From positions 52,462 through 116,461 of the forward strand of contig CAZAVY010000001.1 in assembly GCA_964488685.1 (NCBI GenBank): a stretch of DNA of 64,000 nt, written 5' to 3'. Within the stretch, counting starts at the first letter, position 1, and each line of letters opens with the position of its first letter. The DNA is from an uncultured Gammaproteobacteria bacterium. Lineage in GTDB: Bacteria > Pseudomonadota > Gammaproteobacteria > GCA-001735895. The position numbers were made by a program, and so were the translations under genes. The notes beneath the pieces were generated by a model that ran no database searches, had not been told where the DNA came from, and saw only the letters and a list, made by a program, of their open reading frames with translations. Shown in pieces: positions 20,565 to 34,921 of the stretch.

Positions 20565-22142
20565 ATGCAAAAGGCATTTGGGAAACCGATTGAACATGTG
20601 GTGGATGGCGAAAACAACGCGGTCGAATTTGACGTCGCTTATCCGATCATCGGTGATCCGCAGGTAGCAATTGAACAACTTAAAATTCGACATGGTAACA
20701 ATATCTACCTGCTGCCCATGTCGGGCACCTCGGCTGGTGGAGGCGTTTTCCAGGTCGATACCAAACCACCCGGTCCCATAGTAGGCTTGAAGTTCGATCC
20801 ACCGGCTAACCCGCGAGTTAGTATTTCCGCCCAACCTGAGCTTGCAAAGATCAGCCTCGATGAAATTGTCATTGATCCTGATCATCAGCAGGTAATCGCC
20901 GGCGGATCAATCACCCTGGATCAGATGAACCAGGCGCTTGCCCGGGAACTTGGCCATAGCTTCAAGGTACCCGGGGCTGATTTAACCAGCTATAGGTACG
21001 CAGCGGTCGGGGCCACTTTCATGACCGGGGGTATGGGGCCGCAGCGCAGGTATTTCAGTGATAGCGTAATCGAGATCTCACTCTATAACGGTACCGAAAC
21101 AGTTTCTATCGAAGGTGACAATTTAGGCGGATACGCCGGCACCTATGGCTGGACCGGGATAGTTTGCGCGCTGCGCTGTAACTACTATCGATTTCCTCAA
21201 AACGAAGTGGCGTTTGCACTGCCGGTTCCAGGGACTGGTAAACATATCGCGATGCTACTCGAGCATTTGTCAGCCTATTGTTATTTGAACCTGGAAACAG
21301 TTAAAGTCACTTCGCGATTCGGAACTCACGACCTGATTCTGGGAATCGAACATGTCAGTCGGGGGGCGATGCAACCATTGCTGAAAAGCACCGTCGACAA
21401 CCCGGCTCAAAAGCGAGCCGCGTCGTTATATCAGAAATGCCTGGCTTCAGCCGCGGACGGTCTGGTTTTTATAAACGGGTACAGCGATCAATCCGATGAC
21501 GAATTTTTGTTGAATCTCGCGGATGATCAGCAGGCAGAGGAATTGACAATCGCCGGGATAGGCCTCGAGTTTGCCGAGATTTTCAACGATGCGGAAGAAA
21601 TGCGCGCGGTACGTGAAGCTATCCCTTACGCCGCGCGCACCCAGGTTGCCGGCGGCAGATTAGTCTACCGGAATCACTCAGATGCCAATATCAGGATTAC
21701 GACGGTTGAAATCGCAGGAACGGTTGAGCAATTGTGGCAAATCAATCGTGATTACGTTGCCAGTGTCGAGCAATTTTTTGTCAATACTGCGGAGATTGAT
21801 GGCGAGATTCTGGTTTATGGTCACCTCAATCCCTACGGTGTCGATCCACATAATCGAGTGACGATGAGCAGTGATCATCAGCATGCGTTTGAGTACGGGT
21901 GTGACTTCTTGATCGAGCAGCGCGCGCGATACTATCGCTCCGTGGCCAAAATGTGCAACTCCGGCAAAGCGACATTCATCGGCGGTGAAAAAACTGCCGA
22001 TTCCGAGATTGCCATTTACCGCGCACTGGGAGGACCCGAACGTTCTCCGGCTGCTCTGTTCAAGCGTTTCAAACAACAGCGATCGACAATACGCGCAGCC
22101 GCAACAATGTTCAACTGGCGGGCACCGGAACCCTATATCTAA
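20565..22142 (+). CDS. Divergent FAD-binding (PCMH/VAO-type, GlcD-like) oxidoreductase family protein
   Basis: 525 aa starting 15 nt after glnD. The segment LPMSGTSAGGG...IDPDHQQVIAGGSITLDQMNQALARELGHSF...AAVGATFMTGGMGPQRRYFSDSVIEISLYNG matches the FAD_binding_4 pattern. The C-terminal GHLNPYGVDPHN sits where GHxGDGNxH is normally found. The assignment is from motif memory only. Confidence 0.5.
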   Translation: MQKAFGKPIEHVVDGENNAVEFDVAYPIIGDPQVAIEQLKIRHGNNIYLLPMSGTSAGGGVFQVDTKPPGPIVGLKFDPPANPRVSISAQPELAKISLDEIVIDPDHQQVIAGGSITLDQMNQALARELGHSFKVPGADLTSYRYAAVGATFMTGGMGPQRRYFSDSVIEISLYNGTETVSIEGDNLGGYAGTYGWTGIVCALRCNYYRFPQNEVAFALPVPGTGKHIAMLLEHLSAYCYLNLETVKVTSRFGTHDLILGIEHVSRGAMQPLLKSTVDNPAQKRAASLYQKCLASAADGLVFINGYSDQSDDEFLLNLADDQQAEELTIAGIGLEFAEIFNDAEEMRAVREAIPYAARTQVAGGRLVYRNHSDANIRITTVEIAGTVEQLWQINRDYVASVEQFFVNTAEIDGEILVYGHLNPYGVDPHNRVTMSSDHQHAFEYGCDFLIEQRARYYRSVAKMCNSGKATFIGGEKTADSEIAIYRALGGPERSPAALFKRFKQQRSTIRAAATMFNWRAPEPYI

Positions 22143-25597: not shown

Positions 25598-26539
25598 ATG
25601 GAAATTCAGCGTCTACTCACCGGCCTAAGCCTCAAGATAATCATTCAGTTCTGGGCTGTGATCGTAGCCGTAGCGGTGTTGATCGGATTCAATTATGAGC
25701 TGATCTATCCCTTTTATTTTGAAAACCAGCTTACCAACACGGGAATCATTATCAACAGCGCCATTCTCGTCATACTGCTGGTGGGGCTTGGTAACATCTT
25801 TTATCACCTGCTGCGCTATCGGAAGGAGGAGACCGCCATTGCCCGGCTTGTTAAAAACGCCGAGGCATTACAGTCGGATTTGATGATAGGACTACCGGTC
25901 AATTCGATTGTCGCCAGGCGACATGAAACCATGCGCTCGATTGAGAACGCCAGGGGAGAAATCAATCACAGCGCGCTTGCAGCGATGCTGAACGCCGATG
26001 AGTCCACCCACTTCGGACTGATACGGTTTATTAACAATATCCTGATCCTGACCGGTGTTTTCGGAACCATTGTATCGCTATCAATTGCCCTGCTCGGCGC
26101 CTCCGACCTGATCGACTCGGCCGATGCCAGCATCGGTGGTATGGGCCTGGTTATTCATGGGATGTCGACAGCGCTGTCGACCACTATTACCGCGATCATG
26201 GCCTATGGCATTTTCGGATACTTTTACACGCGTCTGAACGATGTGCAAACTCAATTCCTGAGCAGCGTCGAACAACTGACTTCGGTGTATCTACTGCCTC
26301 GATATGTCAAAACAGGTGACGAAATCGTGCATCAGATGAGCGACCTGATTAAATCGGTGATCCTTGCCACCCACAAGCTTAAGCAGACTCAGGACACCTA
26401 TCACGATGCGGCAACGACACTGCAACAGACGATCACCGCAAGTCGGCAGCAAACCGATCAGCTGGCTGATGAAATGCACGGTATCAAGCGGATACTACGC
26501 GAGGGTTTTCGTCTGCCTCCAACCGATAAAGAGCAGTAG
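25598..26539 (+). CDS. MotA/TolQ/ExbB-family proton-channel protein (4 TM in 2+2 arrangement) with a C-terminal helical tail of about 95 aa
   Basis: 313 aa. Two N-terminal TM helices are followed by a soluble loop of about 100 aa. The MotA_ExbB core then reads FINNILILTGVFGTIVSLSIALLGA ... GMSTALSTTITAIMAYGIFGYFYTRLN (compare the family pattern LGLLGTV ... AL.TT..GL..AIP). A Q/L/T-rich helical tail runs to the stop. Confidence 0.8.
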   Translation: MEIQRLLTGLSLKIIIQFWAVIVAVAVLIGFNYELIYPFYFENQLTNTGIIINSAILVILLVGLGNIFYHLLRYRKEETAIARLVKNAEALQSDLMIGLPVNSIVARRHETMRSIENARGEINHSALAAMLNADESTHFGLIRFINNILILTGVFGTIVSLSIALLGASDLIDSADASIGGMGLVIHGMSTALSTTITAIMAYGIFGYFYTRLNDVQTQFLSSVEQLTSVYLLPRYVKTGDEIVHQMSDLIKSVILATHKLKQTQDTYHDAATTLQQTITASRQQTDQLADEMHGIKRILREGFRLPPTDKEQ

Positions 26540-26545
26540 GCGAAC

Positions 26546-27544
26546 GTGGACACCAGTTTCCCATCGATCGGCGGCAGCCATGCCGGACTCGGAGGCGAAA
26601 ACAGTTTCTGGCCGTCATTTACCGATATCATGATGGTGGTGACAATGATCTTCCTGATGGCGACCAGTATTCTGGTGGTACGCAACTGGCAACTGGTTGC
26701 CGAGCTTCGGGAAAGCGTCGCTGCCGAACAGATCGCGAGTAAAATGATCGAGTCCACCTCGCTCGAAAACGCGACACTGGAAGAGCGACTTGCCAACGCC
26801 GAGCAAAGTAATTCGATCCTGCGTCTGCGCCTGTTAAAGAAGGAAGAAGAAATAATCCTTGCGCAGGCTGCGATTCGAGAACAGGAAACCAGCATAGCCT
26901 CGATGGAACTGCGAAACAGCGATTTGCAACTGTCACTGGAGCAAACCCGGTCGCTACTGTCCGTAGCCAACCTTGAAATCGATGCCGTGAACGCGCAATT
27001 TGAGGAAATGTCCCGGCAAGTTTCGGCTTTGAGTCAACAGCTCGCACGACAACAACTGGTTGGCGATCAAGTCCTGGGAGAGCTTGATATCGCCCTCGAC
27101 AAGATTGCCAGCCTGTCGAAATCAAGCGCCTTACAACAGCAAAGCATCAACCAGCTGACCCGGGAGAAGACCTTGCTGGACCAGGAAATCGAGTCCTACA
27201 ATCAGCAGCTACTGACGTTAAAAGGCGACTATGAAACGGTCAGGTCAAAGTATCAAGAGCTGATCAAACCGGCGCGTAGCGCCAAGGGCAAGTTCATCGC
27301 CGAAGTCTATTATGTCAAGGGCGTATCCGGAAACCTGATTCGCTACCGGCAAGCGGGTGATCAGCAATTCAGCAGGCTCAGCCTGGCTGAAGTAGAACAG
27401 CGCCTGACGCAGTTGAAGCGCGAACACGGTAAGGATCTATACGTCAAGATAATCATTCCCGAGGACAGCGGGCTAACCTATAGCGAAGCCTGGGAATTCA
27501 TGCGCAGCCTGCTGGTCAAATTTGATTACTATTACCAGGAGTAA
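26546..27544 (+). CDS. MotB/ExbD/TolR-like single-pass partner protein with a long coiled-coil stalk and a small C-terminal alpha/beta domain (no OmpA-like domain seen)
   Basis: 332 aa starting at a GTG 6 nt after the upstream stop, with AGG 5 nt upstream. No in-frame ATG lies upstream of the TM helix. The N-terminus FWPSFTDIMMVVTMIFLMATSILVV has an Asp (codon 26624-26626) at the position of the protonatable Asp of MotB/ExbD/TolR. About 190 aa of heptad-like Q/L/E/S-rich sequence follow (about 26684-27250). The C-terminus reads FIAEVYYVKG...LYVKIIIPEDSGLTYSEAWEFMRSLL. Confidence 0.7.
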   Translation: MDTSFPSIGGSHAGLGGENSFWPSFTDIMMVVTMIFLMATSILVVRNWQLVAELRESVAAEQIASKMIESTSLENATLEERLANAEQSNSILRLRLLKKEEEIILAQAAIREQETSIASMELRNSDLQLSLEQTRSLLSVANLEIDAVNAQFEEMSRQVSALSQQLARQQLVGDQVLGELDIALDKIASLSKSSALQQQSINQLTREKTLLDQEIESYNQQLLTLKGDYETVRSKYQELIKPARSAKGKFIAEVYYVKGVSGNLIRYRQAGDQQFSRLSLAEVEQRLTQLKREHGKDLYVKIIIPEDSGLTYSEAWEFMRSLLVKFDYYYQE

Positions 27545-27628: not shown

Positions 27629-27705
27629 GTCCCCGTGGCACAACTGGATAGCGCGACGCCCTCCTAAGGCGTAGGTTGCCCGTTCGAATCGGGCCGGGGA
27701 CACCA
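27629..27705 (+). tRNA. tRNA-Arg (anticodon CCU)
   Basis: A 77-nt cloverleaf folded by hand. The acceptor stem is GTCCCCG/CGGGGAC. The anticodon stem is ACGCC/GGCGT with loop CTCCTAA (anticodon CCT). The T arm is GCCCG-TTCGAAT-CGGGC. The discriminator is A and CCA is encoded. The ends resemble E. coli argW. Confidence 0.9.
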
Positions 27706-27789
27706 TTTAACCTTTTTAAATCAACAGCTTACTTATAATGTGACTTGTCAATTTAACCTCATGTCCTGCCATGCCAATGCGAAATGTAC

Positions 27790-28104
27790 TCAGCCATATA
27801 TAACATGCATCTGATCGAGCTCTTCAGCCATATCCTGCGCAGTATGAAACAAGTCATACTTCTGCTGCATTCCAACCCAGACATTAGGGCCATTACCAAG
27901 AACTTTGCCCAAACGTAGGGCCATAGCAGTGGTAATAGGCCGCGCCTCATTTAAGATATCGTAAAGCATCGGGCGCGATATATTGACGCTTCGAGCAAAC
28001 TCAGCTTTGGATACACCCAGCGCTGGAAGTACATCTTCGCGCAAGATCGCACCAGGATGAGTCGGGGCCCTGGTTACCGCCCCCCTTTCGTATATTTTAG
28101 TCAT
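27790..28104 (-). CDS. higA: HigA-type antitoxin (XRE-family HTH)
   Basis: 104 aa. HPGAILREDVLPALGVSKAEFARSVNISRPMLYDILNEARPITTAMALRLGKVLG is the HigA/VapI HTH pattern. The start shares 1 nt with the higB stop (TAATG). Confidence 0.85.
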   Translation of the reverse strand: MTKIYERGAVTRAPTHPGAILREDVLPALGVSKAEFARSVNISRPMLYDILNEARPITTAMALRLGKVLGNGPNVWVGMQQKYDLFHTAQDMAEELDQMHVIYG

Positions 28105-28379
28105 TAGTGATAATCCTCTAAGTTAATGTGAATGGCGTCTTCAGCTTTCCATGCAAATGTTATGCGCCAATTACCGTTAACGCTCACACTGTAGCGCTTT
28201 GGCTTGCCTTTAAGCGGATGGAAATCCCACCCGGGTATATTCATGTCTTCAGGTTCCAAAGCAGCTTCAAGAGCATCCAACAAACGAAGGCATTTATCCT
28301 TTTGCTGAGCTTTTACCTTTGCGCTGTTGCCCTTTTCGAATAATTGCTTTAAGCCTTTGTGCTTGAAGCTTTTGATCAT
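28104..28379 (-). CDS. higB: HigB-type toxin (RelE/ParE superfamily, plasmid maintenance system killer)
   Basis: 91 aa. MIKSFKHKGLKQLFEKG...LDALEAA...DMNIPGWDFHPLKGKPKRYSVSVNGNWRITF is the classic HigB signature. The toxin-first gene order is typical of higBA. Confidence 0.88.
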   Translation of the reverse strand: MIKSFKHKGLKQLFEKGNSAKVKAQQKDKCLRLLDALEAALEPEDMNIPGWDFHPLKGKPKRYSVSVNGNWRITFAWKAEDAIHINLEDYH

Positions 28380-28387
28380 GCTGGAGA

Positions 28388-28429
28388 GTGTAGTGCATTA
28401 CTTTACACATGTAAAGCAATGCACTACAC
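28388..28429. promoter_or_regulatory. 42-bp near-perfect palindrome upstream of higB (candidate HigA/HigBA operator)
   Basis: GTGTAGTGCATTACTTTACAC|ATGTAAAGCAATGCACTACAC. 19 of 21 positions are self-complementary. It ends 9 nt upstream of the higB ATG. Confidence 0.6.
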
Positions 28430-28540
28430 TAATTGTTAAGTCAAGGTAAGGAACCCGCCGTGGGTTAGTCAGCTATCTCAGAGGTCAGCGAGGCAAGCGG
28501 CGGTTGAATATGCGAGGAAAAAGGGTTTAACATTCCTGGA

Positions 28541-28794
28541 TTAAACATTACGCGCTTCAAACTGCCTTACAGCCCGGCTGACGATCATGTAATGCACCTT
28601 AAAAACTCGGCTATTTCTCGCATTGTAAAGGCACCGGAATAATATGCCTGCGCCATTGCATCGTTTCGGGAAGTATACCGACGCTGGTACTCGTCTAGTG
28701 ACTTCGCCAATAAACGCCGGTATTGGCCATCCGTGTAGGCCAACGGGATTTGTAGGAATCGCCCTACAAGATCGCGAGCAATTATCGATTGCAA
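28541..28794 (-). pseudogene. C-terminal HTH fragment of a Y1 (IS200/RayT-like) transposase-family gene, frameshifted
   Basis: Frame a reads ...RNDAMAQAYYSGAFTMREIAEFL and then stops. Frame b continues KVHYMIVSRAVRQFEARNV. Joined, they give the DnaA-like HTH tail (AY.sG.yTm.EIa..f.vHy..VSR) that I associate with REP-associated/IS200-like transposases. The shift lies at a T5 run near 28600. No catalytic N-terminal domain is present. Confidence 0.45.
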
Positions 28795-28880
28795 CGGTAA
28801 TATCAGCCTCCCATACTGAGATAATAAAAATTAGGCTATCCCAAAGAGGCCAATCAAATGACGGTAATTTCAGGATCGTA

Positions 28881-29829
<949 letters not shown>

Positions 29830-32941: not shown

Positions 32942-34921
32942 TTGCTATCGATTCAACGCCTTTTATTATTGTTTCTGCTGTCGACCCAGGTAACGGCGTA
33001 TGCACAAACTAACGAGGCCACCGCCGAGGATTTCTTTGAAGACTCGCCCTTGATTCTGACCGCATCGCGGATGTCAAAACCACTGCTGGAATCCCCGGCC
33101 AGCGTTAGCGTAATCAGCCGCCAGATGATCGAGTCTTCGGGCATTCGTGAAATTGCCGAACTGTTTCGACTGGTACCTGGATTCGTGGTGGGGTTTCACA
33201 GTGGCCATGCGCCTGCCGTCACTTACCAGGGCCTGGGACTGGAATTTGGTCGCCAGATACAGGTATTGATCGATGGCAGATCGGTATTTATTCCGTCTTT
33301 CGGTGGCGTACCCTGGTCTAACCTGCCGCTGTTGATCGAAGATATCGAGCGAATTGAAGTCATTAGAGGACCCAATGCCGTTACTTACGGGGCCAATGCG
33401 TTTCTGGCAACCATCAATATCATTACCCGTCACGCTGCCGAAGACCTCGGCGCCCAATATTCGGTCACCGTGGGCGACAATACCAACCCCGATATCGAAG
33501 ATGCCTATTTCCGCATCGGGAGTCACCACCAGATACTCGATTGGCGTCTGAGCATCGGCGCCATAAACGATGAAGGGTTTAGCGACATCAATGATTCCAA
33601 GCGCATCGCAAAGATCAATTTTCGAATGGATCTGGAATCGAGCAGCAATCAATTCTGGACTTTGCAGCTCGGTTCCAGTGATAGCGTTGCGGGGCGTGGA
33701 TTCCCACCCTCCCCCGACACTACGACCGATATCGAACGCGATGAAGAAGCGACCAACCAATATTTCAGCTTGCAATGGGAAGGTGTCTGGGGCTCGAGAA
33801 CCTCAATTGCCCGTTTGACACACACTCGTCAAGAAGTAATCGACCACTATGATCCAGGCCCGTTTACACTGCAACTGGACGCGGGCGCTTTTCCCGGAGT
33901 AACCACCTTGATCGATTTTGACCGCAATTCCGAACGTACCGAACTTGAGTTCACCCAAACCGATGACATCAATGACAACCTACGTCTTGTCTACGGCGGC
34001 AGCCTGCGACAGGACAGGGTTAAATCTATCTTTTTGCTGAATAGACGAAATTTTCAGGATGTCGAAAGTAATCGACTGTTCGGGGGCATCGAGTGGCGAT
34101 TTGGTAGAAACTGGTTACTCGATATCGGCGTTATGCTGGAGGATTCAACCCTGACTGAACGCGAGAATTCGCCCCGTATATCGCTGATTCGAAAATTCGG
34201 CAAAACCCATGCATTGCGCCTTGTGGCATCAACCGCTAAACGTAACCCGATTCTTTGGGAGTTCGATGGAGAAACCGAGTTTACGGTAAATATTCCGTTG
34301 TTCGGCACCGTCGTCGTCCCCACATGGTTCGGCAACGACGGCATTGAACCGGAAAGCATTGAATCTTACGAAATAGGTTTGCGCAGTCATTTCGGGGCCG
34401 GGTGGGCAAGTGATATCAAGATTTTCAGATATGATATTGACGATCACATTGTAAACACAACAAGCCCGATCGACACGGGTCCACTGCTAGGCGTTATACC
34501 GGTTGGCACCCCGGTCAACGGCGAATCCACGAAGGTGACAGGGATAGAGGTAGCGCTCGATTACGCAGTTGACAATCAACTGGAACTGCACACCGGGTTC
34601 AGTTTCGTCGACACCGACTCGAGCCTGCGAGACCTGCAGGAGTCATTTCCCGAGTACACCGCTTTTATCAGCGCGCGATACCGGGTAAATTCCAAACATG
34701 AAGTATTTGCGGCTTACTATTATCTGGACGAAATTAGCTGGCTCGATAGCAGTTCGACCACGCCGAGCGCAAATCGACTGGATTTACGCTATGCCTATAA
34801 ACTGACCGGTGCCTTTCAACTGGAAATTATCGGCCAGAATCTGATCGAGGACATCGAAGACTACGAAGATGAAAATATTCACGACCAGGTGATGTACCTG
34901 AGGTTGTCTGGCGGATTTTAA
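32942..34921 (+). CDS. TonB-dependent outer-membrane receptor (small, 659 aa)
   Basis: A TTG start has AGGAG 6 nt upstream. A signal peptide is followed by the TonB-box-like PLILTASR and the plug domain (ESPASVSVISRQMIESSGIREIAELFRLVPG...IERIEVIRGPNAVTYGANA). The beta-barrel ends in YLRLSGGF. Confidence 0.85.
   Translation: MLSIQRLLLLFLLSTQVTAYAQTNEATAEDFFEDSPLILTASRMSKPLLESPASVSVISRQMIESSGIREIAELFRLVPGFVVGFHSGHAPAVTYQGLGLEFGRQIQVLIDGRSVFIPSFGGVPWSNLPLLIEDIERIEVIRGPNAVTYGANAFLATINIITRHAAEDLGAQYSVTVGDNTNPDIEDAYFRIGSHHQILDWRLSIGAINDEGFSDINDSKRIAKINFRMDLESSSNQFWTLQLGSSDSVAGRGFPPSPDTTTDIERDEEATNQYFSLQWEGVWGSRTSIARLTHTRQEVIDHYDPGPFTLQLDAGAFPGVTTLIDFDRNSERTELEFTQTDDINDNLRLVYGGSLRQDRVKSIFLLNRRNFQDVESNRLFGGIEWRFGRNWLLDIGVMLEDSTLTERENSPRISLIRKFGKTHALRLVASTAKRNPILWEFDGETEFTVNIPLFGTVVVPTWFGNDGIEPESIESYEIGLRSHFGAGWASDIKIFRYDIDDHIVNTTSPIDTGPLLGVIPVGTPVNGESTKVTGIEVALDYAVDNQLELHTGFSFVDTDSSLRDLQESFPEYTAFISARYRVNSKHEVFAAYYYLDEISWLDSSSTTPSANRLDLRYAYKLTGAFQLEIIGQNLIEDIEDYEDENIHDQVMYLRLSGGF

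Follow-up and report, generated by a model that had tools for sequence, protein, structure and literature searches.

Two adjacent genes in a 64,000-nucleotide stretch of DNA from an uncultured Gammaproteobacteria bacterium (hereafter the window, i.e., the whole stretch that was analysed) probably encode a motor driven by protons that belongs to the MotAB/ExbBD/TolQR "5:2" class, with TolQR/ExbBD as its nearest branch, and in which the second protein (B) also supplies the periplasm-spanning element. B consists of four parts, i.e., a short N-terminus, a pore-type transmembrane (TM) helix, a heptad rod and an alpha/beta head of about 85 aa, and is encoded next to a divergent channel protein (A). 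The family to which B belongs is undescribed but widespread, and may carry membrane energy across the envelope by one protein instead of two. The genes, and the parts of B, are located as follows:

25598..26539, + strand: A subunit gene (313 aa, divergent MotA/ExbB/TolQ-type channel protein)
26546..27544, + strand: B subunit gene (332 aa plus stop, GTG start; close homologues have 69–80% identity and 331–332 aa)
26546..26605, + strand: B N-terminal segment, residues 1–20, kept in close homologues and putatively on the cytoplasmic side
26606..26683, + strand: pore (transmembrane) helix, residues 21–46, with the FWPSFTD motif (Asp27 codon at 26624–26626)
26684..27268, + strand: coiled-coil rod, residues 47–241 (195 residues; unbroken heptads; helix in the AlphaFold2 model)
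27269..27292, + strand: neck, residues 242–249 (PARSAKGK), with invariant Pro242 and Arg244, non-helical in the AlphaFold2 model
27293..27541, + strand: C-terminal head, residues 250–332 (roughly 85 aa, AlphaFold2 pLDDT about 90)

The start codon of B is supported by the conservation of its N-terminus in homologues, in the alignment of which F5, I8, G9, A13, G14, G17 and E18 are invariant; in the AlphaFold2 model, this segment has a pLDDT <50. By homology with ExbD, TolR and MotB, residues 1–20 would lie on the cytoplasmic side. An earlier, sequence-only reading of this DNA had interpreted B as a plug/stator subunit with a coiled-coil stalk and an ExbD/TolR-like end domain in place of an OmpA-type anchor. 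The peptides quoted in it were retrieved from the B translation (residues 73–133 and 250–323), the nucleotides it assigned to the stalk (26684–27250) indeed encode residues 47–235, and its interpretation of B as a whole is partly supported by the results below.

The A subunit and its pairing with B

Sequence comparison points to A being a divergent MotA/ExbB/TolQ channel protein, by a signal that is consistent although all of the matches lie under curated thresholds. The Pfam MotA_ExbB profile (PF01618) matched residues 115–224 over profile positions 19–125 of 127 (E = 0.0036; 17.5 bits, under the gathering cutoff of 22.9), and 35 of the 38 A homologues gave a sub-threshold match to the same profile (best E = 1.4e-4). 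The A gene of one distant family member carries a precomputed "MotA_ExbB (weak)" label, and PADLOC returned a weak ZorA2 match on A (E = 0.0016). When aligned by hhalign, GVFGT157 and ALSTT196 of A fell on GLFGT145 and ALIAT178 of TolQ (weak two-sequence profile), and T157 and T196, the equivalents of TolQ Thr145 and Thr178, are conserved. A has four hydrophobic segments and a helical C-terminal tail of roughly 100 aa ending in a conserved LREGFRLP; this tail is conserved in homologues, with an invariant GFRL motif. As read from the sequence, the loops at 32–48 and 166–180 are devoid of K and R, and the loop at 73–138 and the tail are K/R-rich.

As in other 5:2 motors, the two genes are adjacent with B downstream. 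In the window, B directly follows A after a gap of 6 nt, and A is located directly upstream of B wherever the upstream region is present, i.e., in all 83 loci but one (L017), the contig of which starts within B and hence lacks A. More distant relatives have the pair as well, among them Thiohalomonas denitrificans and the scaly-snail endosymbiont. Furthermore, the identities of A and B drop in parallel across species, the GC content of the pair equals that of its flanks, and synteny with a cystathionine beta-synthase gene was observed in 37 loci. A conserved third gene near A–B was found neither in the 80 loci inspected nor in distant members. A and B are likely to form a stand-alone, vertically inherited two-gene operon.

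A MlaC-family gene with a Sec signal is situated 10–53 nt upstream of the pair in 12 loci and 1–2 kb downstream in 6 more, this linkage being seen in two subclades. In the window, A–B adjoins a tRNA gene and a HigBA module, and a low-GC island begins only after the tRNA. A defence-island reading of the pair was considered and set aside, as the conserved housekeeping synteny and the core-like GC content speak against it.

Pore helix, rod and head of the B subunit

Like the corresponding subunits of 5:2 motors, B crosses the membrane once, by a TM helix in which a conserved Asp lies close to the N-proximal end. W22, P23, S24 and D27 are invariant across 112 family representatives, and FWPSFTD is found in 111 of 146 representatives, the rest being mostly short fragments that typically lack the N-terminus. 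Within its hydrophobic stretch of 25 residues, D27 comes 7th, compared with 6th of 24 for D25 of ExbD. Matches of B with ExbD and ZorB, at E-values of roughly 1e-2 to 1e-5, cover the TM helix only and stay under curated thresholds. More specifically, ZorB1 gave weak matches on residues 17–77 (NCBIfam, E = 0.014) and 17–67 (PADLOC, E = 4.8e-4), which extend no further than the pore helix and a few residues beyond, while Pfam ExbD (PF02472) gave sub-threshold matches in 23 of the 112 members (best E = 3.5e-5), which begin at, and are driven by, the pore helix where checked (P0259; two-sequence ExbD/TolR profile). The B protein of the window itself had no PF02472 match at E ≤ 1 and stays below the curated threshold for ExbD/TolR, and phmmer, queried with ExbD and TolR of E. 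coli, returned zero matches among the complete ORF sets of the window and of 83 loci. With hhalign, the pore helix of B was placed on the ExbD/TolR TM helix with Asp27 opposite ExbD Asp25 (20% probability). The hhalign comparisons are weak because the profile consists of two sequences, no local ExbD/TolR sequences having been found with which to deepen it.

The sequence-only reading was right that an OmpA-type domain is absent from B (no OmpA or MotB_plug match among the Pfam profiles PF00691 and PF13677 at E ≤ 1). Its wording that a plug/stator subunit had replaced its OmpA anchor implies a MotB origin, which is not borne out: of the stator families, only ExbD and ZorB gave a signal on the pore helix, in both cases sub-threshold, and the plug is absent.

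The following 195 residues of B (47–241) contain zero Pro and three Gly (173, 178 and 227), none of which is kept in close homologues (G173 and G178 being conserved in <20% of these). A single best heptad register runs from about residue 65 to about residue 255, and the hydrophobicity of the rod has a Fourier peak at period 3.5 (z = 4.8 vs. 1000 shuffles). AlphaFold2 (monomer, 112-sequence alignment) modelled one continuous helix over residues 28–239, with pLDDT >90 over residues 80–230. Family-wide, 51–56% of the a/d positions are LIVMF vs. 9–17% at the other heptad positions (position a: L 0.40, Y 0.09, I 0.08; position d: L 0.42, A 0.14, T 0.10). With its 3.5 periodicity, continuous a/d register and lack of helix breakers, the rod has the hallmarks of a canonical left-handed heptad coiled coil, and both the register and the modelled helix bear out the proposal that the stalk is a true uninterrupted coiled coil of about 190 residues. 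The 25–30 nm estimated for it holds as well, with 195 residues at 0.1485 nm per residue corresponding to about 29 nm if extended.

Throughout the family, the rod measures 104–402 residues (median about 28 nm) and falls between 25 and 30 nm in 48 of 110 members. Rods of 35–60 nm, exceeding the typical width of the periplasm, are present in about a third of the family, and "just spans the periplasm" therefore fails as a rule for all members. The spacing between the TM Asp and the head Pro equals 5 mod 7 in 80 of 110 representatives, and in 24 of the 50 distinct lengths (binomial p = 1.4e-8), from which it follows that rod length mostly changes by whole heptads. Correspondingly, rod lengths step by single heptads (159, 166, ... 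264), and in a minimum spanning tree based on TM and head similarity 58 of the 98 length changes are multiples of 7, with 26 more being +/-3 or 4. These whole-heptad changes favour an extended in-register rod over a hairpin or a low-complexity expansion. Pro is absent from the rod in 108 of 110 representatives, and since self-BLAST revealed no internal repeats in the longest members, long rods are not recent tandem duplications. As to whether homologues keep the stalk, it proved to be conserved and always present, with a length varying in whole heptads. A lineage-specific low-complexity expansion, named beforehand as an outcome that would undermine the proposal, is thereby ruled out, because every full-length homologue retains the stalk.

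At the neck, the pLDDT of the AlphaFold2 model falls to about 70 and DSSP assigns coil. The head that follows has the fold order beta-beta-(beta)-alpha-beta-alpha, after which comes a conserved tail (YDYYYQ), and from the model it is probably TolR-like. A Foldseek search with the full-length B model put E. coli TolR (5by4) highest in the list (probability 0.85), with a TMt of 0.51, an rmsd of 3.4 A over 83 columns and 18% identity, but the E-value (0.28) was not significant. A model of the isolated head with lower confidence (shallow alignment, pLDDT 76), from which TolR was not among the Foldseek top 50 and which gave insignificant uS11 and RNase-H-like matches, was superseded by the 112-sequence full-length model. 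Pfam ExbD had zero matches on the head domain, PDB searches with the head (single sequence and profile) found no ExbD or TolR and returned chance matches (L18a, InvE and thioesterase I), and hhalign of the head against E. coli ExbD and TolR yielded 0.4% probability (weak two-sequence profile). The ExbD/TolR-like end domain proposed earlier thus drew no significant sequence evidence from these searches, and is weakly supported by the top Foldseek probability of TolR. The segment aligned by hhalign was alpha1-beta3-alpha2, exactly the one to which the sequence-only reading had pointed.

The B family and its relation to known motors

An exhaustive HMMER search with the head delineated a discrete family. 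It comprises 372 clusters at 50% identity, of which 343 have E <1e-10, and the head is at the extreme C-terminus in every member found. Matches occurred in 460 GTDB species genomes, and the 80 listed are mostly uncultured marine Gammaproteobacteria. All full-length members share the architecture of B, none carries a functional annotation, and the head domain has no Pfam or NCBIfam model. The family is common in uncultured marine-sediment and sulfur-oxidising symbiotic Gammaproteobacteria, and one homologue is listed under a cultured species, Thiohalomonas denitrificans. A word-indexed search with the head alone retrieved only 31 short fragments. Some relatives are named "chromosome segregation ATPase", "myosin heavy subunit" or "ATP synthase subunit B family protein" at source; such SMC, myosin and ATP synthase b names were rejected as artefacts of coiled-coil composition, an ATPase domain being absent. 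No description of the B architecture was found in the accessible literature, which does not prove its absence elsewhere.

The pair most resembles the TolQ-TolR-TolA and ExbB-ExbD-TonB systems, with an A-type channel gene followed by a B gene with one Asp-bearing pore helix, conservation in A of the Thr residues of TolQ TM2 and TM3, a beta-beta-alpha-beta-alpha head with TolR 5by4 as best structural match, and an element long enough to cross the periplasm. In contrast to these systems, the operon lacks a TolA- or TonB-like third gene and the spanning element is inside B, where it is a rigid heptad coiled coil rather than a Pro-rich or single-helix tether at the side of the motor. The linker from pore helix to head, short in ExbD/TolR systems (about 20–40 aa), is 195 aa long here, and a conserved third gene in the place of a separate TonB/TolA-type transducer was not found in 80 loci. 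Moreover, sequence similarity to ExbD/TolR lies under every curated threshold and covers the TM helix only, and A has four predicted TM segments, like MotA, and not three.

In the GldL-GldM motor, the GldM dimer is a fairly rigid body that reaches from its pore helices through the periplasm, and is thought to pass rotation to an outer-membrane-proximal machine (PMC8986121). However, the periplasmic part of GldM consists of four globular or helical domains and not of a coiled coil, GldL has two TM helices, and the pair is restricted to Bacteroidota, within large gld/por gene clusters; no sequence similarity of A–B to GldL-GldM was detected. TPH-vWA proteins pair with TolQ-like genes without a separate tolR/exbD gene, and have been proposed to transduce force by rotating inside the pentamer (PMC12204202). 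They differ in that their linker is disordered or Pro-rich, their head is a von Willebrand A domain and most of them occur in heterologous pairs, whereas here a single B combines a heptad rod with a small, probably TolR-like head.

ZorA-ZorB, likewise a motor of 5:2 type, also contains a coiled coil of great length, and provided the weak best PADLOC and NCBIfam matches for A and for the pore helix of B. In Zorya, however, the coil is formed by the tail of ZorA in the cytoplasm, a peptidoglycan-binding domain is present in ZorB, and ZorC/D or ZorE is encoded adjacently, whereas A–B has an A tail of about 100 aa and housekeeping neighbours, lacking the very long ZorA tail and an adjacent ZorC/D or ZorE. 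With MotA-MotB and PomA-PomB, the pair shares the four predicted TM segments of A with both termini inside, and a single-pass B with an Asp near the cytoplasmic helix end; it differs in that B lacks a plug helix, an OmpA-like peptidoglycan-binding domain and a flagellar gene context. The OmpA-like domain and plug of MotB, PomB and ZorB are thus both missing from B.

Proposed mechanism and alternative explanations

In the proposed mechanism, A and B would assemble into an A5B2 complex. With the N-terminus of B in the cytoplasm, two B chains would form a parallel two-stranded rod extending about 29 nm into the periplasm, which would reach across the peptidoglycan and place two TolR-like heads at the outer-membrane side. 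Proton flow past Asp27 would turn the A pentamer relative to the B dimer, and because the rod would be rigid and continuous with the pore helices, this relative rotation, or the reaction force, could be passed directly to whatever the heads hold. B alone would then replace the TolR and TolA, or ExbD and TonB, pairs; the earlier suggestion that one polypeptide combines TolR-like with TolA/TonB-like spanning roles fits both this architecture and the absence of a conserved third gene. Candidate targets of the heads are peptidoglycan, an outer-membrane protein and lipid-handling machinery, the latter being hinted at by the MlaC-like neighbour in some subclades. We infer the stoichiometry, the topology and the parallel dimeric pairing of B. 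The flanks of the B pore helix average 1.5 K+R on the N side and 2.0 on the C side, which makes the positive-inside rule uninformative for B, so that its periplasmic placement rests on homology and on the topology of A. A bolder version, which casts the B dimer as a rigid drive shaft that rotates, or as a fixed axle, and has it carry proton-motive torque about 29 nm from the inner membrane to an outer-membrane-side partner, with a length heptad-tuned to the envelope of each lineage, is put forward tentatively and may well prove incorrect.

Several points weigh against the motor reading, among them the sub-threshold family matches, the non-significant TolR match, the rods that exceed a typical periplasm and the lack of a conserved partner gene. 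In addition, the A tail is longer (111, 122 or 140 aa vs. 97) only in loci with a long B rod, and such covariation in length is unexpected if both are on opposite sides of the membrane. This same covariation would suit a Zorya-like sensor or signalling device, in which the rod and head of B are a fixed post or envelope probe and the output is rotation of the A tail acting on a cytoplasmic partner, without force on the outer membrane. The helical and conserved A tail with its invariant GFRL, the weak ZorA2 and ZorB1 matches (PADLOC, NCBIfam) and the tRNA gene and HigBA module next to the pair in the window point the same way. We nevertheless consider this device unlikely: the PADLOC E-values are only about 1e-3, neither ZorC, ZorD, ZorE nor another conserved effector gene was found nearby, the pair shows housekeeping synteny and core-genome GC with the low-GC island only past the tRNA, and the cytoplasmic coiled coil on A and the peptidoglycan binding by ZorB that typify Zorya are here reversed or absent. 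The covariation would also be accommodated if B were inverted, with stalk and head in the cytoplasm, as a membrane-anchored cytoskeletal or "SMC-like" coiled-coil protein or a peripheral stalk resembling that of F-type ATPase b. The positive-inside rule slightly favours such a C-terminus-in orientation, but the charge rule is not diagnostic for the family because the N flank of E. coli ExbD is itself devoid of K and R. The SMC-, myosin- and ATP synthase-type source names given above and the weak SMC and LmuB matches that support it stem from coiled-coil composition only, with no ATPase domain, and adjacent ATP synthase genes are absent. Moreover, the first quarter of the TM helix, counted from its N-terminal side, contains the Asp, just as it does in ExbD, TolR and MotB; Asp aligns on Asp with ExbD and the conserved Thr residues of A align on TolQ, and inverting B alone would move the Asp away from that Thr ring. 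The best fold match of the head is a periplasmic domain. Inverted topology is accordingly rated as very improbable.

An alternative that leaves B in the periplasm is an ordinary TolR/ExbD-like stator with a stalk that doubles back into an antiparallel hairpin or runs along the membrane, so that the head stays near the inner membrane, and with the coil serving as an oligomerisation or spacing module. The 35–60 nm rods of about a third of the members, which cannot stand upright in a typical periplasm, would be explained, the monomer AlphaFold2 model is unable to show pairing, and the rod core is moderately hydrophobic (51–56% LIVMF at a/d, with many Ala, Thr and Ser at d). A hairpin would, however, need paired changes in both arms, whereas rod lengths step by single heptads with a fixed phase from pore helix to head; a conserved Gly- or Pro-containing turn is absent (108 of 110 rods lack Pro), and AlphaFold2 predicts one unbroken helix with pLDDT above 90, leaving the folded stalk distinctly unlikely.

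How 5:2 motors transfer energy across the periplasm is debated, i.e., whether B rotates, or A rotates and pulls a tether. A motor as proposed here, with a B subunit that is a stiff continuous coiled coil and with neither a flexible linker nor a third protein, would be a minimal system to answer this question, since rotation of the B rod could be followed directly and heptad insertions or deletions offer a built-in ruler. Despite its size (372 clusters at 50% identity, matches in 460 GTDB species genomes), the family is entirely without annotation, and defining its head domain, which lacks a Pfam or NCBIfam model, would annotate relatives now called "hypothetical" or wrongly named "chromosome segregation ATPase". 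If B does act as a drive shaft or axle, it would represent a third, so far unrecognised trans-envelope energy design, in addition to GldM and the TonB/TolA tethers. From the fixed heptad phase it would then follow that function depends on the angle at which the heads stand relative to the pore helices, and the outer-membrane-side partner might, given the MlaC-like neighbour, be involved in phospholipid or outer-membrane homeostasis.

A two-gene module and its genomic setting

The ORF that the sequence-only reading had placed at 26546-27544 is real, with both quoted peptide stretches found and the coordinates right, and its start codon is backed by the conserved first 20 residues in the homologue alignment. 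Its product, the single-pass and Asp-bearing B, runs from a pore helix through a heptad rod and a neck to a small head, and is always encoded together with the ExbB/TolQ-like A, since an A homologue lies directly upstream of B in every locus with the upstream region present.

Features of the A-B region
Upstream flank: cystathionine gamma-lyase-like and cystathionine beta-synthase genes
25598-26539, + strand: A gene, 313 aa, four hydrophobic segments, ending six bases upstream of B
26546-27544, + strand: B gene, GTG start, 332 aa
27629-27705: tRNA-Arg(CCT), downstream flank
27790-28379, minus strand: HigB/HigA toxin-antitoxin pair, in a low-GC island
32942-34921: TonB-dependent receptor (Plug and beta-barrel domains), 5 kb downstream

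Pfam MotA_ExbB matches A across almost the entire profile at a sub-threshold score (E = 0.0036), as it does in 35 of the 38 A homologues, and the most conserved A stretches (i.e., GVFGT157 and ALSTT196) align with GLFGT145 and ALIAT178 of TolQ. Since the short loops 32-48 and 166-180 hold no Lys or Arg and both residues abound in the 73-138 loop and the ~100-aa C-terminal tail, the predicted topology of A is MotA-like, with both termini inside. Moreover, the TonB-dependent receptor encoded in the window implies that the organism presumably has a canonical Ton system, to which the A-B pair would be an additional motor.

The pair has the same GC content as its flanks, and the low-GC stretch with the HigBA module starts only past the tRNA. 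This small island (GC 0.46; tRNA and island together 27629-29681) also holds a remnant (29139-29681) of a 445-aa protein, of which only residues 130-310 are left; relatives have this protein intact downstream of B. Contigs of close relatives (L001, L003, L008 and other metagenome contigs) often stop a few hundred bases past B, as would be expected if the tRNA-Arg site held a variable or repeated region that disrupts assembly. On the other side of the pair, a 525-aa ORF (20565-22142) without Pfam match at E<=1e-5 is conserved beside glnD in relatives, and is the truncated first gene of the L001 and L002 loci.

A word-indexed search for B relatives yielded 1819 matches, the best 120 of which are 69-80% identical and 331-332 aa long, apart from a few slightly longer ones (up to 359 aa) and one partial. 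When one genome per GTDB species was scanned, relatives turned up in 460 stretches, and the 80 listed among these stem almost all from uncultured marine or sediment Gammaproteobacteria, including the Olavius algarvensis Gamma 3 symbiont, Cellvibrionaceae, Pseudohongiellaceae, Sedimenticola and Thiotrichales. With the head profile, an exhaustive HMMER search retrieved 372 clusters at 50% identity (343 with E < 1e-10), with the head at the extreme C-terminus in every case, and these head-bearing proteins form a discrete family without a tail of weak ExbD-like matches. Among the best 150 head matches are 111 full-length proteins (258-540 aa), in which the motif (F/V/L/W)WPS(F/L)(T/A)D precedes a TM helix at residues ~20-47; W22, P23, S24 and D27 of B are invariant in the family representatives. 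Named members, from sources including Thiohalomonas denitrificans and the scaly-snail endosymbiont, are labelled 'hypothetical protein' or misnamed owing to their coiled-coil composition. Two MAGs each hold two different A-B pairs, i.e., Cca_20 (L017 and L047; B 77% and 59% identical to the window protein) and MO_103.B26 (L060 and L066; both 53%), reflecting either paralogous motors or mixed bins.

Most of the conserved neighbours mirror synteny among close relatives, an MlaC-family gene in some subclades (below) being the one exception. Because neighbours vary and only A and B persist in distant members, the pair is a stand-alone two-gene module.

The coiled-coil rod

Residues 47-241 of B contain no Pro and three Gly (none conserved), and follow one heptad register all along, with a hydrophobicity Fourier peak at period 3.5 that lies 4.8 SD above shuffles. 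AlphaFold2, given a 112-sequence alignment, modelled residues 28-239 as a single uninterrupted helix (pLDDT > 90 at 80-230). The long uninterrupted stalk proposed from the sequence is thereby borne out.

Across the family, the spacing between the pore-helix Asp and the invariant neck Pro ranges from 124 to 422 residues. In 80 of 110 representatives it equals 5 mod 7, making a consecutive series of 159, 166, 173, ... 264; with distinct lengths counted once, 24 of 50 are still 5 mod 7 (binomial p = 1.4e-8). In a minimum spanning tree built from only the conserved TM and head parts, 98 edges involve a length change; it is a multiple of 7 in 58 of them and +/-3 or 4 in 26 more, the latter being the classical stutter/stammer. 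When heptad positions were counted back from the Pro over the entire rods of the 80 in-phase members, two positions (3 and 4 apart) were 51-56% LIVMF (Leu 40-42%), versus 9-17% for the remaining five. Pro is absent from 108 of 110 rods, and self-BLAST of the longest members showed no internal sequence repeats. We infer a continuous coiled coil that stays in register along the rod, and the single-heptad steps together with the lack of a conserved turn favour an extended rod over an antiparallel hairpin.

The stalk could also have been a lineage-specific expansion that homologues lack, as the sequence-only reading had itself considered, and this fails because the stalk is never absent in relatives. 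Within the window's own clade, the Asp-Pro spacing is constant (215 residues in 32 loci). With a mean identity of 0.69, against 0.81 in the head and 0.94 in the TM helix, the rod is under purifying selection.

Rod lengths, computed at 0.1485 nm per residue
This protein: 195 residues, ~29 nm
Family median: 191.5 residues, 28.4 nm
Family range: 104-402 residues, 15-60 nm

Rods of 25-30 nm occur in 48 of 110 members, and about a third of the family has rods of 35-60 nm, exceeding the typical width of the periplasm.

The head domain and the topology of B

The absence of an OmpA-type domain was upheld, as neither OmpA nor MotB_plug matched B at E<=1 in Pfam, NCBIfam and PADLOC; neither did ExbD. 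These collections returned just coiled-coil noise and weak ZorB1 matches covering the pore helix and adjoining residues (17-77 in NCBIfam, 17-67 in PADLOC). Pfam ExbD is found sub-threshold in 23 of 112 family members, and in one of these (P0259; residues 24-106 vs. profile 12-91) the match begins at, and is driven by, the pore helix; our own ExbD/TolR profile also matches the pore helix of B.

The head itself is covered by no Pfam or NCBIfam model, and no match was found among PDB sequences with either the single sequence or a 43-sequence profile. Comparing its profile with E. coli ExbD and TolR by hhalign (sequences checked against PDB chains, with all but one ExbD residue confirmed) gave a non-significant 0.4% probability; this same non-significant run pairs alpha1-beta-alpha2 of the head exactly with ExbD (LSLAEVEQRL...LYVKIIIPEDSGLTYSEAW vs. 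DETMITAL...TTIFFRxDKTVDYETL). In the AlphaFold2 model the neck (240-250) is of low confidence and the head is modelled confidently (pLDDT ~90), in the order beta-beta-(beta)-alpha-beta-alpha. Foldseek with the high-confidence model gave no match at E<=0.001. Its highest-probability match (0.85) was the E. coli TolR periplasmic domain (5by4), with the best target-normalised TM-score (0.51), 18% identity and by far the lowest rmsd (3.4 A over 83 columns); the remaining matches were uS11 and RNase-H-like folds (rmsd mostly higher, ~4.6-8 A; TM<=0.43). A TolR/ExbD-like fold of the head is likely. The earlier interpretation, a TolR-like head on a TolA-like spanning rod, is partly supported: the rod anatomy stands and the head is probable rather than established.

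The positive-inside rule is indecisive for B (mean K+R of 1.5 before the helix vs. 2.0 in the 15 residues after), and is not diagnostic in this family since the N flank of E. coli ExbD is without K/R. Nevertheless, several features point to an inside N-terminus with a periplasmic rod and head: the Asp is found within the N-proximal quarter of the helix, a position shared with ExbD, TolR and MotB, and Asp is matched to Asp in the alignment; the topology of A is clear and its Thr positions are conserved; the best fold match of the head is a periplasmic domain; and the operon of one subclade encodes a Sec-signal protein.

In loci with a B spacing of 180-243, the cytoplasmic tail of A (FGYFY to GFRL) always measures 97 aa; tails of 111, 122 or 140 aa (43-aa insertion) occur only where this spacing is 236-324. 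Either a lineage effect or genuine coupling across the membrane could explain this link.

The A tail
Longer-tail homologues: L039, L051, L073, L076, L083 (columns ~292-334 of A6, the alignment of A homologues)
Window equivalent: 26228-26539

A possible motor and its functional leads

We propose that the complex would be A5B2, with the rod standing in the periplasm as a parallel B2 coiled coil. Proton flow would rotate A5 relative to B2, and the rod would convey torque or a reaction force over ~29 nm to the heads because it is continuous with the pore helices, with no plug and no flexible linker. The heads would bind a putative partner at or beyond the peptidoglycan; the C-termini of B (the invariant DYYYQ) and of A (LREGFRLP) look like binding motifs for putative partners. 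By analogy, the rod would either turn (like GldM) or act as a fixed axle (like MotB).

MlaC carries phospholipid across the periplasm. In 12 loci, a signal-peptide protein of the MlaC family (PF05494) has its gene 10-53 nt upstream of A, in the same orientation, and 6 loci belonging to a second, diverged subclade have an MlaC-family gene 1-2 kb downstream (PF05494 matches of E = 6.5e-27 and 1.7e-22). Identity between the two MlaC-like groups is 22-31%, and the B proteins of the two subclades are each 39-55% identical to window B. Within 8 kb of the pair, no MlaC-family gene was found in the window's own clade.

MlaC-family loci
L058-L070 and L072 (e.g., L062:6405-7031)
L075:10332-10997
L078-L082

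The abstract of a recent report (10.1101/2024.11.27.625625) gives Tol-Pal a primary role in outer-membrane lipid homeostasis. Together with the MlaC-family neighbours, this hints at an envelope-lipid role of the A-B motor without amounting to evidence for one. In one distant member (L086:7882-12461), an ABC transporter is encoded after the pair in the same orientation, and includes an ABC_transp_aux (GldG-like) protein and a DUF4340 protein.

Among the closest known systems are TolQRA and ExbBD-TonB, which share the motor class and probably the TolR-like head, and GldLM, in which the B-type subunit itself spans the periplasm. Also close are the recently proposed TPH-vWA proteins (PMC12204202), in which a TolR-like pore helix is joined to a periplasmic adhesin domain. 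Surveys covering MotAB homologues (PMC12505986) and periplasmic force transducers mention no coiled-coil B subunit, and further full-text searching of the accessible literature found no description of this architecture. The anatomy of B is striking and well supported comparatively; its function, topology and assembly we infer. As read from sequence, A-B would be a 5:2 motor, of the MotAB/ExbBD/TolQR class, in which the B architecture is previously undescribed and the head domain lacks annotation.
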